Virus record (IMG/VR): IMGVR_UViG_2585427789_000011 | Source of the DNA: a virus | Lineage: Duplodnaviria > Heunggongvirae > Uroviricota > Caudoviricetes | Direction: 5' to 3' (one strand) | Length of the DNA: 6,545 nt | Part shown: piece by piece, positions 1 to 6,545 of the stretch | Position numbering within the stretch: position 1 is the stretch's first letter | Layout of the letters: each line of letters begins with the position of its first letter | The notes under the pieces: generated by a model | Seen by the model: only the letters and a program-made list of their open reading frames with translations | What the model was told of the DNA's origin: nothing | Database searches by the model: none | Translations under genes and position numbers: made by a program

Positions 1-272
1 GACAGCAGGCTCATAAGACGCCCCAGCGTCGCCATAGTGCGTTCACCGAATACGTGCGCAACAACCGTCTTCCGGAGACTGTCATACGCGTAAAACAGCC
101 AGCGCTGGCGCGATTTAGCCCCGACATAGCCCCACTGTTCGTCCATTTCCGCGCAGACGATGACGTCACTGCCCGGCTGTATGCGCGAGGTTACCGACTG
201 CGGCCTGAGTTTTTTAAGTGACGTAAAATCGTGTTGAGGCCAACGCCCATAATGCGGGCAGTTGCCCGGCAT
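1..272 (-). CDS. insB: IS1 transposase InsB, N-terminal 90 codons only (3' end outside window)
   Basis: ATG at 272-270 (minus); translation [91 protein letters not shown] matches recalled InsB; overlaps the insA 3' end in another frame, as expected for the IS1 InsAB' frameshift arrangement. Confidence 0.85.
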
Positions 273-466
273 CCAACGCCATTCATGGCCATATCAATGA
301 TTTTCTGGTGCGTACCGGGTTGAGAAGCGGTGTAAGTGAACTGCAGTTGCCATGTTTTACGGCAGTGAGAGCAGAGATAGCGCTGATGTCCGGCGGTGCT
401 TTTGCCGTTACGCACCACCCCGTCAGTAGCTGAACAGGAGGGACAGCTGATAGAAACAGAAGCCAC
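191..466 (-). CDS. insA: IS1 InsA (transposition regulator and N-terminal part of the InsAB' transposase)
   Basis: 91-aa ORF in the track: [40 protein letters not shown]...LKNSGRSR, matching recalled IS1 InsA with its N-terminal zinc-finger cysteines. Confidence 0.95.
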
Positions 467-2266: not shown

Positions 2267-2338
2267 CGATTTCTTTATCTCTTACATCAGACGAGCGCCG
2301 GTTGCAGAATACCAGTCACAACCGGCGACAGTTGAACA

Positions 2339-3418
2339 TTAAGAATCAGCCTGACTCGGGATCAGTTTTTGCCAGATAACTGAAACGTATTTTGCCTGGT
2401 AACGGGCGTCATCAAGTGCATTATGGCGCTCACCTTCGAATGGAATAGCCGTTCTGGCATCGAAGTCTATGGCTTTCCCCAGCTCAACGATTGTGCGTAC
2501 ATCGCGATCGTTGTAGTAACGCCACGGGCAGGGGATCCCCTGCCGTTCGTATGAACGGCGCAAAATCGTGTTGTCGAAGTTGGCTCCATTTCCCCAAACC
2601 TGAACAAAAAATTCACCGGAGTTTTCGTCGATAAATTCCCGCAATTGTAACAGTGCATCATCTAACGGGATTTCATCGGTCATAATGGCAGATTGCGCTT
2701 CGCGTGATTGCTTAAGCCACCATTTAATGGTGTCCCGATCAATGACTCCGCCAGCAGTTTCCAGATCGATAGTCTTACTAAATTCCGGTCCCATATCTCC
2801 GGTTTGCGGATCGAAAAATATTGCACCTATTGAGATGATCGGGGCATCAGGATTTTTTCCCATGGTTTCAAGGTCGATCATTAGATGGTCACACGTCCTG
2901 CTGGTGGATGTGATTTCGTGATGACCGTTCACCTTAATTGAGTGATCTGCCGTCTCGCCAGTTTCATTATCGCTATTGTGATGCTGATTGCCGCCAGTGT
3001 TCTCCTTGTGTGGATGTTCAGCGCCTTCCATTTCCTCCGGATCATCTTCCTGAACTTCAACCTGATACTCTTCATCGAATGTTTCTTGGTATGTTGCGTC
3101 GCCCATCACCGCGCCACAATCAGGGCAGTTGCCGCCGCCGGTCTGACCGCAGGCGGTGCAGACTTTTTCCACTTCCTGTTGCACCACTGGTTCAGGCTGT
3201 TTCGTTTCTGGCTCGTTTTGTAACGCATTTGGGCTGTTTTGTTCCGCTTTCTGGTAGTTCCGTTCCGATTCATGCTGGTTCTGGTTCACAGAATCGCGGG
3301 TCTGGATCCCCTTAACCCATTTCGGATCATTCGGGTCACTAATCCCTTCAACAAATTCACCACGTGATGCAGCAAGCAACTTATCGGCGTCAGGCTGGCT
3401 GATATTGGCTGCCTGCAT
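2339..3418 (-). CDS. DnaQ-like DEDDh 3'-5' exonuclease-domain protein with an acidic, Cys-containing N-terminal region; 5' boundary uncertain
   Basis: C-terminal 190 aa carry Exo I (MIDLETMG), Exo II ([12 protein letters not shown]) and Exo III ([13 protein letters not shown]) motifs. N-terminal half is Q/E/D-rich with a [16 protein letters not shown] zinc-ribbon-like cluster. The track ORF extends to 3652, but the first 78 codons overlap the upstream gene and look non-coding; the ATG at 3418-3416 is the first start downstream of the upstream gene's stop, with a weak SD. Confidence 0.7.
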
Positions 3419-3434
3419 AATTTTGTTTACTTCG

Positions 3435-3779
3435 TCAGCGGTAACTTTTACCGGCTCTGGCTGTGCGGTCTTCAGAGGCACCAACATTTTGCGGTAAACC
3501 CGAGTATGTACCATTTTTGCGGGCAAAATATTCTTCTTTCGTGATTTCAGTAGCCCCAGCAGCCAGCGCCTTATCCAGACCAGAAAGTTTGTTTGCGCGA
3601 CCGTATTTTTCGCCATCCTTATCGGCGAAGAGGAAATAGAACGGCCCCTCACGCTCTACAGATGGTTCAACTTCCACCGCGCATTCAGTTTTTGCGATAT
3701 CAGATACCCGTTTCCACTGCATCAGTTTCTGGTACTGACGACGAGAGAACATCAACAGCGCCCAGATCTCTTCCTTCAT
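3435..3779 (-). CDS. Hypothetical protein (114 aa from the ATG at 3779; the track ORF begins at a GTG at 3788)
   Basis: ORF 3435-3788, translation ...[90 protein letters not shown]... with balanced composition. Its 3' part overlaps the long exonuclease-frame ORF. No recognisable family. Confidence 0.5.
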
Positions 3780-3799
3780 CTCAAACACGCCCTTTGTAG

Positions 3800-4804
3800 T
3801 CAGGTATTCGCAATATATTTGTTCAGTGCCACAGGATCTTTGTGAATGTCGATCGGACGCTCACGGACAAGGCCAAAAATAGTCTGGCGGTCGTAGCGAA
3901 GGGCATCAGGCTGTTTGCGCATCGATGCCGAGATACGCTTCCAGTCTTCGCGGTCGTTGTCGATAACTTCATTTTTTGCCCAGCGATGGATGCTGCCGTC
4001 AATGTTTCCGGCATCCACATCACCAGGCCAGAGAGCGTAGGCCAGTTCGTCATCCAGTGTTTTCCATGTCTGCTTGTATTCGCGATGAATGGCAGCAATG
4101 ACCGGGCTGATTTTTCCTGTTGAATTTTCAGTGTACTGTTGATTGGCTCTGGCGCGGGCGAGATCAACAACAGACGTGTATTTTCCGGTTTCCTTGCGTT
4201 CACCTTCGCGACGTTTTTTCCAGATGCGCATCTCTGCCTGAATTTCGGGCCATTTGGCACTAGGAATACATTTATGCTTAACCCACCCGATGGCATGCAG
4301 CTTAAGCTCCGGATACATGGCGTTAACTTCTGGCATTTTCATCAACGCTTCAACGATATGTCCGTCGAATGTTGCCATGTCTTCCTGCAACAATTCCTGC
4401 GCGCTAATCACCATATCAACGGTGATGTTTTCACATGTACCGAACTTAACCAGGACCGCGTTCTGTACTTCAAGGGACAGCTTGTCAAAATTGACGATCA
4501 TCGGATCGGATTCTGGTTCGACCGGGACAAAGGAAGCGCCTTCCTCATCCCAGCGGTTTTCCAGCATATATTCGGTATCCCAGGAGTCGATGGCAGGGCG
4601 GGGCATGCCGGGTTTATCCTCGCAGACAAGAAATTTATAAGCGCAGTCCTGAGCAGCCGGATATTGCTCCAGGAATTGCCAGGTAAATTTGGCACGGGCG
4701 CGACGTTCGTCGCCGGCTTCAATGGCAGTGGCTACAGCGACTGCACCTTCTTCCTTTATTGCCTGTTCGTCCGGAATGGCGGCGCAAATAAAGACTTTAC
4801 TCAT
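3800..4804 (-). CDS. Hypothetical prophage protein, 334 aa (sits where ydfE lies relative to ydfD/dicB in K-12 Qin, by recall)
   Basis: Long ORF with protein-like composition (MSKVFICAAIPDEQAIKEEG...), GAGG about 11 nt upstream of the ATG, same strand and tight spacing with flanking genes. The antisense 230-aa ORF is F/H/C-rich and looks spurious. No motif recognised by eye. Confidence 0.7.
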   Translation of the reverse strand: MSKVFICAAIPDEQAIKEEGAVAVATAIEAGDERRARAKFTWQFLEQYPAAQDCAYKFLVCEDKPGMPRPAIDSWDTEYMLENRWDEEGASFVPVEPESDPMIVNFDKLSLEVQNAVLVKFGTCENITVDMVISAQELLQEDMATFDGHIVEALMKMPEVNAMYPELKLHAIGWVKHKCIPSAKWPEIQAEMRIWKKRREGERKETGKYTSVVDLARARANQQYTENSTGKISPVIAAIHREYKQTWKTLDDELAYALWPGDVDAGNIDGSIHRWAKNEVIDNDREDWKRISASMRKQPDALRYDRQTIFGLVRERPIDIHKDPVALNKYIANT

Positions 4805-4884
4805 TTTGTTTTAACCTCATTACAGATTTAAGGGTGAACAAATCCCTGCCATTGCTGGCATATAAAAATGAAACCGGATATTAA

Positions 4885-5088
4885 TTACGGTGCTGTTTTA
4901 AGTCCTGCCGGGATTTCGTTATTATCCATGTGAATAACTTTATCGACCGGATAACAGTTACCGGGAATTTTCTGTTCCGCTGCGGCAACCATGCATTCTT
5001 TCATTGAGCCGTATACGCCAGTAACCATGTCAACCGGTTCACCGGAAACAAGAAAAACCGTCAGAACAAGTGCAAATGTAGTATTCAT
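4885..5088 (-). CDS. ydfD: YdfD-like small membrane protein (prophage lysis-type protein), 67 aa
   Basis: Translation MNTTFALVLTVFLVSGEPVDMVTGVYGSMKECMVAAAEQKIPGNCYPVDKVIHMDNNEIPAGLKTAP has an N-terminal hydrophobic segment. Start ATG 5088-5086 overlaps the dicB TGA stop (ATGA), with AAGGA 8 nt upstream. Identity by position immediately downstream of dicB and recalled Qin gene order. Confidence 0.65.
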   Translation of the reverse strand: MNTTFALVLTVFLVSGEPVDMVTGVYGSMKECMVAAAEQKIPGNCYPVDKVIHMDNNEIPAGLKTAP

Positions 5089-5273
5089 TGCCAGCATCCT
5101 TTTTGCATCAGGCGTAAACGGGCCAGCATTGAAACAATGCATATTTTATTTAATAGCTCCCGTTCTTGTTTTCTCTTGTTAATGGCATCTTCAGTAAATA
5201 CTGGGTTACTGATAGTGACACCAATTTCAAAACAACCTTCAGACGTATTAACGTTTGGTAATAACGTTTCCAT
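5085..5273 (-). CDS. dicB: Cell-division inhibitor DicB (activates MinC-dependent inhibition of FtsZ), 62 aa
   Basis: From the ATG at 5273: METLLPNVNTSEGCFEIGVTISNPVFTEDAINKRKQERELLNKICIVSMLARLRLMQKGCWQ, near-identical to recalled K-12 DicB (MKTLLPNVNTSEGCFEIGV...). GAGGA SD at 5281-5285, 7 nt upstream. The track's longer ORF (to 5345) is an in-frame upstream extension without an RBS. Confidence 0.85.
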   Translation of the reverse strand: METLLPNVNTSEGCFEIGVTISNPVFTEDAINKRKQERELLNKICIVSMLARLRLMQKGCWQ

Positions 5274-5290
5274 TATCGCGTCCTCAACAA

Positions 5291-5446
5291 TGAATTTTGT
5301 GATGCGGCGCCTGGTGCCTCCAGGTGACGTTAACCAGTAAACCATTAACGCCGGATTGTTAGTTGATGTCTGTTACGCAAGTAAAAGACCGCTTGTTTTA
5401 ACTGTTCCGCGTGCGCTGAGCCGCATTCACCGCATCACAAAATTCA
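5291..5446 (-). promoter_or_regulatory. 17-bp perfect long-range inverted repeat in the dicF-dicB spacer; candidate RNase III processing duplex or translational control structure in the dicB 5' UTR
   Basis: Plus 5291-5307 (TGAATTTTGTGATGCGG) is the exact reverse complement of plus 5430-5446 (CCGCATCACAAAATTCA). One arm abuts the DicF terminator, the other lies 6 nt upstream of the dicB SD. A 17-mer repeat is not expected by chance in 6.5 kb. Confidence 0.45.
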
Positions 5447-5450
5447 CTTT

Positions 5451-5493
5451 AAAAGGGGCGGGTATCACGGGAAAAACAAAACGAATACCCGCC
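5451..5493 (-). terminator. Intrinsic terminator forming the DicF 3' end
   Basis: 9-bp stem GGCGGGTAT (5457-5465) / ATACCCGCC (5485-5493) with a 19-nt loop, followed on the minus strand by CC-UUUU. Confidence 0.55.
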
Positions 5494-5509
5494 AAAAGGT
5501 AATCAACAT
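5451..5509 (-). ncRNA. dicF: DicF-like small regulatory RNA (Hfq-dependent inhibitor of ftsZ and other targets in K-12), variant sequence
   Basis: Minus-strand sequence CAUGUUGAUUACCUUUUGGCGGGUAUUCGUUUUGUUUUUCCCGUGAUACCCGCCCCUUUU lies about 180 nt upstream of dicB, matching the recalled K-12 dicF-dicB spacing of about 185 nt. It shares the UUUGGCGG...GUUUU...CCGUGA...GCCGCCC-UUUU pattern with recalled K-12 DicF. The 5' end is set by analogy, not determined. Confidence 0.6.
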
Positions 5510-5790
5510 GGGTTGTTGTAGCGGAGTTGTCACTCAGGCGTATGGTCAACCTGACAACCCGGTGTCCTCAACGGGGAAGGAATAACCCCGCCATACTTAC
5601 CGCCGCGCCATTTCGCGGAGTGCCACAACCGGAAGCGCACGGTCGACGAAAATTTAACGACAGGCTATCTATGAACCAGCAACCTCGCCGTGCGCTTTCG
5701 CGTTATGCTCTGACTTTTCAGAGAAATATCCTTTCAGTAAACTGTCAGTGCCGGATGTTCACCCGTGGAGAACTCCTTAATTACCAACCC
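5509..5790. other. G+C-rich, hairpin-dense non-coding segment (candidate structured RNA or regulatory/recombination region); strand unknown
   Basis: About 60% G+C by hand count over 5521-5640, against AT-rich flanks. Perfect stems at 5526-5532/5552-5558 (7 bp), 5572-5576/5586-5590 (5 bp), 5603-5607/5614-5618 (5 bp) and 5633-5642/5688-5697 (10 bp, 45-nt spacer). No minus-strand ORF longer than about 15 codons; the only plus-strand ORF is Arg-rich with rare Arg codons. Confidence 0.4.
5715..5743 (+). promoter_or_regulatory. Weak candidate sigma70 promoter for the 77-aa gene
   Basis: TTTTCA (5715-5720), 17-bp spacer, TAAACT (5738-5743); 4/6 match to each consensus hexamer. Flanked by short repeats CTGAC/GTCAG and CTTTTCAG/CTTTCAG. 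By-eye call only. Confidence 0.2.
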
Positions 5791-5802
5791 TCAGGAGGGT
5801 GA

Positions 5803-6036
5803 ATGTTAAAATCAACTCTTATTGCTAAATGCCTTTATCAAAATCGCATGGTAAGCAGCATTTCAATAGGCGAGTCTGCAGTTAAAAGTATTTTCGAAGA
5901 GTACTTTTCCGGGCATGATTTTAATAAATGGAATACCAAATTACCGCCAGCAGTTTCAACGCGTATTCTGAAAGCAACTGAAAGAGCAAGTACAATTCGC
6001 GTTAACTATTTCATTAAAGATTTGTGGGATCTTTGA
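5803..6036 (+). CDS. Hypothetical small protein, 77 aa, transcribed opposite to the dicB operon
   Basis: ATG 5803 preceded by AGGAGG (5793-5798, 4-nt spacer); AT-rich coding sequence MLKSTLIAKCLYQNRMVSSISIGESAVKSIFEEYFSGHDFNKWNTKLPPAVSTRILKATERASTIRVNYFIKDLWDL; no similarity recognised. Confidence 0.55.
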   Translation: MLKSTLIAKCLYQNRMVSSISIGESAVKSIFEEYFSGHDFNKWNTKLPPAVSTRILKATERASTIRVNYFIKDLWDL

Positions 6037-6421
6037 TATCCACAGAGCCTAAAGTATGTGCATATGGATGTGCTATTGTGCGCCCTCGCAGATTTGCATC
6101 ATTTTCTAAATTCACTGAACGAAACAGGGCATCAACAAGGCTCTGTACAATGCAAAGGCAATCGAAGACTGTCGCCGTTTCTGTTTTGATTGATGAAAGA
6201 ACATGGCCATTCACGCAAACAGAAATTACCCGTTTATTAACATCGCTTTCCTGCTTTTGATTATCAGAACCATATAGCCCAGAAAAAGCATTGCGCACAT
6301 TACGAACCATATTATCGATGGTTTCTTTTTTGGTGTATGCCGGGTCAATTTTCACCAGACTATCACCGAGTGTCGTTGCAGCAATTATCTGGATTTCTTT
6401 TGGTAAATCTTTAAATTCCAT
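6014..6421 (-). CDS. Hypothetical protein, 135 aa, convergent with and overlapping the 77-aa gene by 23 nt
   Basis: ATG 6421 with GAGG 7 nt upstream; translation MEFKDLPKEIQIIAATTLGDSLVKIDPAYTKKETIDNMVRNVRNAFSGLYGSDNQ... protein-like; no HTH or other motif recognised. Not DicA-like despite the same length. Confidence 0.6.
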   Translation of the reverse strand: MEFKDLPKEIQIIAATTLGDSLVKIDPAYTKKETIDNMVRNVRNAFSGLYGSDNQKQESDVNKRVISVCVNGHVLSSIKTETATVFDCLCIVQSLVDALFRSVNLENDANLRGRTIAHPYAHTLGSVDIKDPTNL

Positions 6422-6443
6422 TATTAGCCTCGTTGGTTAACCA

Positions 6444-6545
6444 TTAACGTGGGTATGTAATCATTCTGGCAATGCTTAATGCCGCTGCTTTTTCCAGATT
6501 GGTGATATCCTGCTCCAGAGCGGACAGATTTTCAGCCTGCTTAGC
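6444..6545 (-). CDS. 3' end (33 codons) of an upstream minus-strand gene, product unknown
   Basis: Open frame from the window edge: ...AKQAENLSALEQDITNLEKAAALSIARMITYPR* with TAA at 6446-6444, 22 nt upstream of the 135-aa gene start. Too short to identify. Confidence 0.4.
   Translation of the reverse strand, partial: AKQAENLSALEQDITNLEKAAALSIARMITYPR

Follow-up and report, generated by a model that had tools for sequence, protein, structure and literature searches.

A pair of convergent, overlapping small genes in temperate Enterobacterales phages and its possible role as a prophage effector and lytic antidote

The stretch of viral DNA analyzed here, 6,545 nucleotides (nt) of the IMG/VR record IMGVR_UViG_2585427789_000011 (hereafter the window), is part of an Escherichia coli lambdoid prophage with its early-left operon (ydfABC-dicF-dicB) on the minus strand. 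It carries two small genes, one encoding 77 amino acids (aa) on the plus strand and one encoding 135 aa on the minus strand, that converge and overlap at their 3′ ends. Sequence comparison indicates that the pair is a conserved two-gene module of temperate (lambdoid) Enterobacterales phages, and apart from two PHROG families without function it belongs to no known family. We tentatively propose, at a probability of about 0.35, that the two proteins are antagonists, the 77-aa protein being a prophage-state effector and its partner an early-lytic neutralizer.

Two small genes and a conserved partner domain

The pair and its parts have the following positions in the window.

5803..6036, plus strand: 77-aa gene with an ATG start, antisense to the early-left operon; predicted all-helical protein, phrog_10348
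6014-6421, minus strand: 135-aa gene with an ATG start; phrog_1363
6014..6036, both strands: 3′ overlap of 23 nt, with no intergenic spacer or terminator between the genes
5793..5798, plus strand: Shine-Dalgarno sequence AGGAGG, separated by 4 nt from the start codon of the 77-aa gene (ATG at 5803)
6428..6431, minus strand: Shine-Dalgarno sequence GAGG, separated by 6 nt from the start codon of the 135-aa gene (ATG at 6421)
6014..6244, minus strand: partner domain, about codons 60-135 of the 135-aa open reading frame (ORF), the part conserved beside the 77-aa gene in other phages
6257..6421, minus strand: N-terminal domain (MEFKDLPKEIQ..., about 55 aa), specific to E. coli/Salmonella

These coordinates, the shared 3′ end, and the Shine-Dalgarno sequences of both ORFs agree exactly with a first-pass annotation made from the DNA alone, and comparison with other phages supports both ORFs as genes. 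Homologs of the 77-aa protein in Klebsiella, Raoultella, Dickeya, Xenorhabdus, Salmonella, Morganella, Yersinia, and Serratia have the same length at 53-71% identity. A first search gave 33 clusters, mostly of 77 aa, and an exhaustive HMMER search with the 77-aa profile gave 163 clusters at 50% identity, nearly all of them single-domain proteins of roughly the same length. The longer hits that were inspected as fusions that might offer a functional clue were mis-called starts, extensions by read-through or frameshift, and one repetitive spurious protein. In codon alignments of 17 diverged loci, in which synonymous sites are saturated and the nonsynonymous divergence (dN) is 0.3-0.46, the median ratio of nonsynonymous to synonymous divergence (dN/dS) is 0.16 for the 77-aa gene and 0.27 for the partner. 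Because homolog length is kept, dN/dS is low, and the convergent overlap is recurrent, both ORFs are to be regarded as real genes on this comparative evidence.

The families to which the two proteins belong are catalogue entries without function, and the pairing, geometry, and promoter described below are not in those entries. Residues 1-77 of the 77-aa protein align with positions 1-77 of phrog_10348 over the full length (E = 2.7e-46), and residues 1-130 of the 135-aa protein align with positions 1-138 of the 139 in phrog_1363 (E = 3.7e-47). Neither protein of the pair has a match in Pfam or NCBIfam, in PADLOC-DB v2.0 (no family at E ≤ 1), or in sequence and fold searches of the PDB, in keeping with the first-pass annotation, which had seen no motif for a specific function; nor does either gene match the DicB family (PF05358), which is matched only by the neighboring dicB ORF at 5085-5345. 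The AlphaFold2 model of the 77-aa protein is confident (predicted local distance difference test score, pLDDT, of 96.4) and shows five helices in a soluble bundle. The first-pass annotation had suggested structure prediction followed by a similarity search, and the fold search with this model returned no structural neighbor; since the model is confident and has no neighbor, the protein is a candidate new fold. Its maximum 19-residue Kyte-Doolittle hydropathy is 0.59, with no transmembrane segment, and by hydropathy neither protein of the pair is membrane-associated.

The 135-aa ORF, which the first-pass annotation had treated as one unit, is a fusion in which the E. coli-specific N-terminal domain precedes a conserved partner domain of about 75 aa. 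Residues ~60-135 are 35-42% identical to free-standing proteins encoded convergently to the 77-aa gene in other genera; these partners have 77-79 aa in Klebsiella, Dickeya, and Serratia, where the overlap with the 77-aa homolog is 23 nt, and 191 aa in Yersinia, where it is 26 nt. The partner family comprises 98 clusters across the Enterobacterales. Residues 1-66 of the 135-aa protein instead match phrog_9419, phrog_2151, phrog_6937, and phrog_33007, and the same N-terminus is found on proteins of 179, 201, and 208-212 aa that have other C-termini. The AlphaFold2 model, an N-terminal helical hairpin, a disordered linker (residues 49-60), and then a beta-hairpin with helices (pLDDT ~80 for the partner domain), agrees with such a two-domain arrangement. 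Other fusions of the partner domain were also seen. In Citrobacter (P0160 and relatives) it follows an N-terminal ClpX-type C4 zinc finger (PF06689), and in the Yersinia locus L010 (4215-4787) a YdfC-like segment is joined to it (38% identity over 60 aa, E = 5e-11). This connects the module with YdfC, whose gene directly precedes it in E. coli.

Co-inheritance, opposed control, and a proposed antagonism

IMG/VR was scanned with each family, and all ORFs of the 167 fetched loci and of the window were searched with both profiles. The partner domain is present in 167 loci and the 77-aa gene in 163, and 162 loci have both, which answers the co-occurrence question raised by the first-pass annotation in favor of its proposed module. 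The module is further upheld by the conservation of both ORFs, and no homology to replication or recombination proteins was found. The two genes are convergent and overlapping in 160 of the 162 loci, and in the remaining two the 77-aa gene is frameshifted. These loci encode 73 distinct protein pairs, among them two diverged subfamilies of the 77-aa protein that begin MTRSD... and MKRSD..., and the divergence of one protein is correlated with that of the other (Mantel r = 0.61, with none of 2000 permutations as high); among the 73 there is no pair in which one gene is near-identical and the other strongly diverged.

The overlap ranges from 23 to 51 nt, being 23 nt in 100 loci, 33 nt in 29, 26 nt in 21, and 51 nt in 10. 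Its length is set by the position of the first antisense stop codon in the conserved C-terminus of the 77-aa protein (...FIKDLWDL), so the conserved feature is the absence of a spacer or terminator and not a length of 23 nt. The overlap of 23 nt to which the first-pass annotation drew attention thus seems to be incidental, a consequence of the tail-to-tail arrangement without a spacer.

Loss of the two genes is one-sided. The 77-aa gene occurs without the partner at a single locus, which is cut by a contig end, while the partner occurs without the 77-aa gene at five; the 77-aa gene is missing, replaced, or frameshifted with the partner kept at L095, L101, L130, L150, L166, and L076/77, and in the 201-aa allele described below. 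In at least four of the five partner-only loci another domain follows the partner or is fused to it, and a different reverse gene faces it. Such reverse genes were seen facing the partner in L095 (4241-4534), L101 (3974-4603 and 4836-5604), L130, and L150, and they encode either a zinc-ribbon protein of 66-94 aa or a protein of 150-207 aa ending ...YTGWQ.G.GD. The convergent pair seems to be an arrangement that recurs in this part of the phage genome. One-sided loss is the pattern expected if the 77-aa protein needs an antidote.

It might be held that the two are functionally independent accessory genes, set tail to tail for compactness and co-inherited through nothing more than their adjacency and overlap. 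Phages have compact, mosaic early regions, the length of the overlap depends only on where the first antisense stop falls, other and unrelated forward/reverse pairs occupy the same position, and no functional family joins the two proteins. We nevertheless judge this reading quite improbable, as the pair is almost never split in at least 73 diverged versions, down to ~25% identity, while its flanks vary both downstream (RdgC, ParB-like, YfdP, or dicF/dicB) and upstream (cI, BstA-sized genes, or ydfABC), and as replacement of the 77-aa gene is accompanied by an altered partner C-terminus.

The sequences upstream of the two genes point to opposed control. In 63 of 87 unique loci the partner is preceded, on its own strand, by an S24-type cI gene, and the median gap between the two is 216 nt. 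In the Klebsiella locus L005, two copies of the operator palindrome ACAGnnnAAACTGT lie between cI and cro and another two in the cI-partner gap, where the operators overlap the promoter-like site TTGACC-18-TATTAT. In the Yersinia locus L010, the cI-cro palindrome is CTAAGTTATCTTAG, one copy reading CTAAGATAACTTAG, and related, less perfect copies lie in the cI-partner gap. The adjacent upstream cI and the repetition of the cI-cro operator palindromes in the cI-partner gap show the partner (~77 aa) of phages outside E. coli to be the predicted first gene of a cI-repressed operon read from the early-left promoter pL, which would place its synthesis at the start of lytic growth. Since the partner occupies the position of lambda N, it was considered as an N-type antiterminator; inspection of partner N-termini such as MKKQGRIVTVSVNG and MSKSGRLVEVRVNG revealed no arginine-rich motif, and there was no Pfam match.

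The 77-aa gene outside E. coli shows a promoter of its own, predicted from conservation, that faces pL. The motif TGnTAnnnT lies 39-43 nt before the 77-aa ATG in 46 of 53 unique non-E. coli upstream regions, and its invariant columns, TG, TA, and the final T, are those of an extended -10 element. It belongs to a block, TGCCTG-N-TTxxCCAC-n-TCAGGC-nn-GGTGGTATCtT (L005 3935-3975), that is more conserved than the coding sequence. Within this block the inverted repeat GCCTG...CAGGC brackets the -35 region of the predicted promoter and is constant across phages that have different cI operators. The alignment lends no support to an RNA helix in the repeat, since its arms are mostly invariant and one compensatory change stands against several uncompensated ones.

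Two further observations concern this region. A promoter-like site, CTGAAA/CTGAGA-17-TACAAT, lies 165 nt inside the 77-aa gene at the same position in E. coli (window 5968-5996, plus strand) and in Serratia (L008 4166-4194, plus strand); transcription from this site would run antisense into the partner gene, and conserved T-I codons may explain the site. Just beyond the pair in the Yersinia locus L010 (3497-3624, minus strand) there is a match to the tRNA model of 38.5 bits, which at 128 nt is unusually long for a tRNA.

We now put forward an explanation in which lysogeny and lytic growth would each yield one of the two proteins. The 77-aa protein would be the component that can be made in the lysogen, from its own promoter facing pL with a lysogen-active transcription start site about 7 nt downstream of TGGTATCTT, and the partner would be made only when pL fires. 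Because no terminator lies between the genes, the transcripts would be mutually antisense, each running through the opposite gene, and by the same token the lysogenic and lytic states would be mutually exclusive. Through transcriptional collision and the pairing of the two RNAs, the firing of pL would shut off the 77-aa gene, and the newly made partner would neutralize the 77-aa protein that is already present. We propose that the 77-aa protein is of the exclusion or abortive-infection type, or is otherwise harmful to lytic development, and that the partner acts as an early-lytic antidote that would provide the phage with self-immunity. The arrangement of predicted promoters and operators is compatible with the class of prophage defense systems that have self-immunity.

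Several points weigh against this proposal. Neither protein matches a toxin, antitoxin, defense, or anti-defense family or a solved fold, and the evidence for the 77-aa promoter is sequence conservation alone. In the window itself, a strict sigma-70 scan upstream of the 77-aa gene gave no promoter and the ancestral TGnTAnnnT is absent from 5530-5802, the native promoter having been lost at a recombination junction that falls exactly at the 77-aa ATG. The partner domain of the window deviates at several nearly invariant positions (for example, AVAADY has become ATVFDC), and its 77-aa protein carries Ser at residue 36, a position of nearly invariant Pro in the family. The asymmetric loss consists of few cases, in most of which the 77-aa gene was swapped for another reverse gene and not deleted, and tight co-inheritance of adjacent, overlapping genes is expected from linkage alone.

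The polarity of the antagonism could also be the reverse. Pore-forming colicins have immunity genes that converge on the toxin gene and are read from a separate promoter, and by analogy the pL-encoded partner would be a harmful early-lytic effector, acting in host takeover or in a block to division, with the 77-aa protein as a constitutive immunity protein that buffers leaky pL. A partner under cI-controlled pL opposed by a 77-aa gene with its own promoter also fits this, and the module lies beside dicB and dicF, which are toxic early genes (PMC5069750). The partner persists, however, without the 77-aa gene in several loci and beside a frameshifted 77-aa gene in two, which should be deleterious if the partner were toxic, whereas the orphan 77-aa gene that this polarity would tolerate was never seen in the scanned loci; nor is there similarity to toxin or immunity families. 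Hence the one-sided loss appears to fit a 77-aa effector with a partner antidote better than the colicin-like polarity, which we consider unlikely.

Alternatively, the module could be a regulatory device, in which convergent transcription and antisense pairing, perhaps with the 77-aa protein as a nucleic acid-binding regulator, tune pL and the lysis-lysogeny decision, and the two proteins need not bind one another. Antisense control at convergent phage genes is represented by lambda oop/cII and P22 sar/ant. Without a terminator between them, the transcripts of the two genes are necessarily mutually antisense, the module is at the very head of pL, and the GCCTG...CAGGC repeat could be a site for a protein that the module encodes. 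We hold this, too, to be distinctly less than likely, and retain the effector and antidote as our working proposal.

The E. coli site and the copy in the window

The module in the window is a recombinant copy between ydfC and the dicF leader of the DicA-controlled operon. The features that bear on its arrival and on its surroundings are listed below, with forward denoting the direction of the operon.

5792..6425, both strands: two-gene module, an insertion of ~634 bp relative to the Qin prophage of K-12 (alignment with NC_000913.3)
5803..6037, both strands: exchangeable cassette relative to the 201-aa/63-aa allele, with junctions at the 77-aa ATG and after codon 128 (GSVD) of the minus-strand gene
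6444..6545, minus strand: 3′ part of ydfC, the gene directly before the module in the operon (as annotated in identical E. coli DNA)
5451..5505, minus strand: dicF slot (alignment with K-12 dicF), a diverged sequence resembling a small RNA (sRNA), with a terminator hairpin 5493-5485 / 5465-5457 and a T run
5085-5273, minus strand: dicB, with a match to Pfam DicB (PF05358) at E = 1e-39

K-12 Qin has neither gene of the pair, and its ydfC is followed directly by the dicF leader. The two genes are thus present or absent as one unit, as the compact accessory module of the first-pass annotation implied. The cassette with the 77-aa gene occurs in 650 of 5426 complete E. coli genomes, about one in eight, including O157:H7 (in the prophage at ompW), and 602 of these 650 have it at 99% identity or more. 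It is also found in Escherichia phage Evi, in PPompW prophages, and in records of Stx2a-converting phages that include the PPompW prophage.

Four alternative cassettes were found at this E. coli position, in line with the earlier suggestion of a site of variable genes.

Window 5803-6421: 135 aa forward, 77 aa reverse; 650 of 5426 genomes
L002 4001-4784: 201 aa forward, 63 aa reverse; 8 of 5426 genomes
L174 2013-2849: 208 aa forward, 69 aa reverse
L175 3001-3763: 179 aa forward, 80 aa reverse (zinc-ribbon-like)

All four are convergent forward/reverse pairs, the N-terminal MEFKDLP domain is common to all of the forward proteins, and the upstream flank of all four reverse genes is the conserved ydfC-dicF spacer. 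The homology of the window with L002 resumes exactly upstream of the 77-aa ATG, and the AGGAGG Shine-Dalgarno sequence is common to both alleles. The 63-aa protein is unrelated to the 77-aa protein, and the proteins of the alternative cassettes have no convincing family match, PADLOC-DB included.

The 201-aa allele raises the question of whether the overlap is an artefact, created when an insertion in reverse orientation truncated a 201-aa gene to 135 aa. The 201-aa homologs are indeed identical to the 135-aa protein through residue 128 and different beyond it, and the DNA alignment with L002 shows a replaced cassette from window 6038 to 5803. The form that is widespread across genera, however, is a 77-aa gene with a partner that ends about seven codons past GS(V/L)(D/P). 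This truncation was rejected because free-standing overlapping partners exist in four other genera and because the 201-aa allele is rare, and we give it next to no credence. It is the 201-aa allele that is derived, given its rarity (8 against 650 genomes) and the wide distribution of the paired form across genera.

A broader reading of the cassettes, which we also consider unlikely, is that the head of the early-left operon is a polymorphic hotspot for an unrecognized class of convergent switch cassettes, made up of prophage effectors and lytic antidotes on two orphan folds. In each, a forward early-lytic gene would be opposed to a reverse lysogen gene, the two being made exclusive by head-on transcription and antisense pairing; the 77-aa gene and its partner would be the most widespread cassette, and the 201/63, 208/69, 179/80, and zinc-ribbon pairs would be others.

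Whether or not the module acts as proposed elsewhere, the copy in the window could be a decaying remnant in a cryptic prophage, without current function, and this would be compatible with any of the other readings. The native 77-aa promoter is missing, the partner domain and residue 36 depart from the family invariants as set out above, the neighboring exonuclease gene has two frameshifts when compared with a close relative, the integrase is bordered by an IS1 fragment, and the 77-aa gene is frameshifted in two E. coli loci of IMG/VR. Opposed to this, both ORFs are intact here and in nearly all 650 carrier genomes, with the high identity noted above in 602 of them, and the pair is present in sequenced phages such as Evi and in PPompW prophages. 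In addition, the occurrence of four different reverse genes on one upstream platform suggests that the platform supports their expression. We regard decay as somewhat unlikely on balance.

The operon on the minus strand runs from ydfC through the 135-aa ORF, a structured spacer with the dicF-like slot, dicB, a DUF1482 gene, the exonuclease, and an excisionase-like ORF to the integrase. Several E. coli chromosomes are 100% identical to window 5500-6545, and in identical E. coli sequence the Prokaryotic Genome Annotation Pipeline (PGAP) of NCBI calls both ORFs of the pair hypothetical (WP_001735122.1 and WP_000394517.1). The literature on the dicBF operon gives its gene content solely as ydfABC-dicF-dicB-ydfD(E), and a literature search by accession found neither protein of the pair mentioned in any paper.

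The first-pass annotation had placed the pair upstream of dicF and near a dicB locus. The latter is correct, and the former stands in so far as the pair directly precedes the slot that dicF occupies in K-12; the sequence in that slot is diverged, and the Rfam DicF model has no match there even at E ≤ 10. In the variant of the window the arms of the terminator hairpin are GGCGGGTAT/ATACCCGCC, the GTGACGTTT segment is missing, and the loop differs from that of K-12 dicF. The relative L002 has a third variant in the slot, and the variants may have different target mRNAs. The Klebsiella locus L005 has, just past the gene pair (3874-3922, minus strand), a weak full-length DicF match of 29.9 bits (E = 0.013, under the gathering score) with a terminator-like hairpin, and the association of the pair with a dicF-like sRNA may extend past E. 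coli. A sub-threshold match to STnc100, a Salmonella sRNA family, spans the dicB leader and the start of dicB (window 5296-5444, minus strand; 29.9 bits, E = 0.0013, gathering score 47).

The remainder of the window bears marks of rearrangement. The exonuclease gene (2339-4804, minus strand) is broken into three ORFs; residues 1-332, 333-450, and 448-822 of the intact 823-aa exonuclease of a close relative align in frames -2, -1, and -2, which implies two frameshifts, through pseudogenization or sequence errors. An IS1 InsA-like ORF (191-466, minus strand) adjoins the integrase end of the prophage. Window 2333-6545 is 97.5% identical to a relative in which the left 2.3 kb (1-2332), comprising the integrase, the excisionase-like ORFs, and the IS1 fragment, is unmatched, and the prophage is therefore mosaic near position 2333.

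Significance and relation to known systems

The pair is found in about one in eight complete E. coli genomes, O157:H7 and Stx2a-phage-associated prophages among them, and both of its proteins are still called hypothetical. What the present analysis adds is the true partner domain, the strict pairing across the Enterobacterales, the placement at the head of pL, the predicted extended -10 promoter, and the polymorphic set of E. coli cassettes. If the effector and antidote assignment is true, a small portable module would join the catalogue of prophage-encoded defense with self-immunity, the several unrelated convergent cassettes at one site beside dicF and dicB would be explained, and the pair would provide a simple model of how head-on transcription together with a protein antagonist makes two states mutually exclusive.

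Among known arrangements, lambda oop/cII and P22 sar/ant resemble the pair in the overlapping 3′ convergent transcription within the immunity or early region of a temperate phage. The difference is that the “antisense” transcript here would be the mRNA for a conserved protein and not a short non-coding RNA. The same distinction separates the pair from type I toxin-antitoxin loci such as txpA/RatA and bsrG/SR4, which have convergent 3′-overlapping transcripts and are often on prophages. The pair is like them in its 3′-overlapping convergent genes, the pairing of its transcripts, and its prophage setting, but both of its strands code for conserved proteins (dN/dS 0.16 and 0.27), neither giving a non-coding antitoxin RNA, and the 77-aa protein, with its low hydropathy maximum, is not a small hydrophobic peptide. 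With type II toxin-antitoxin systems the pair has in common two small co-inherited proteins, asymmetric losses, and possibly an inverted repeat at a promoter. It differs in that the genes are convergent in nearly all loci (160 of 162) and do not form one co-directional autoregulated operon, in that they have separate regulators, cI-controlled pL on one side and a predicted promoter of its own on the other, and in that neither protein has a recognizable toxin or antitoxin domain.

The pair is like the pore-forming colicins in that a small gene with a separate promoter, placed between the first and the downstream genes of a repressed, inducible operon, converges on a gene of that operon. The operon here is that of a phage early region and there that of a plasmid, neither protein of the pair is membrane-associated, there is no homology, and the loss asymmetry of the pair favors the opposite polarity.

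Lambda RexAB and the SieB of P22 and lambda with Esc are comparable prophage defense genes on the repressor side. They resemble the pair in their position beside cI at the head of the early-left region and, as we infer here, in combining a component made in the lysogen with a counter-measure supplied by the phage's own lytic program. BstA with its aba element likewise provides prophage defense and cognate self-immunity beside the repressor (PMC8585504). The pair has no similarity in sequence or fold to BstA, SieB, or RexAB, and its counter-component would be a separate protein from a convergent, overlapping gene, whereas the counter-components there are the DNA element aba, the in-frame internal product Esc, or a partner encoded in the same direction. 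By analogy, it is nevertheless repressor-side prophage defense with self-immunity, as in BstA/aba and SieB/Esc, that the pair would most resemble in the way it works.

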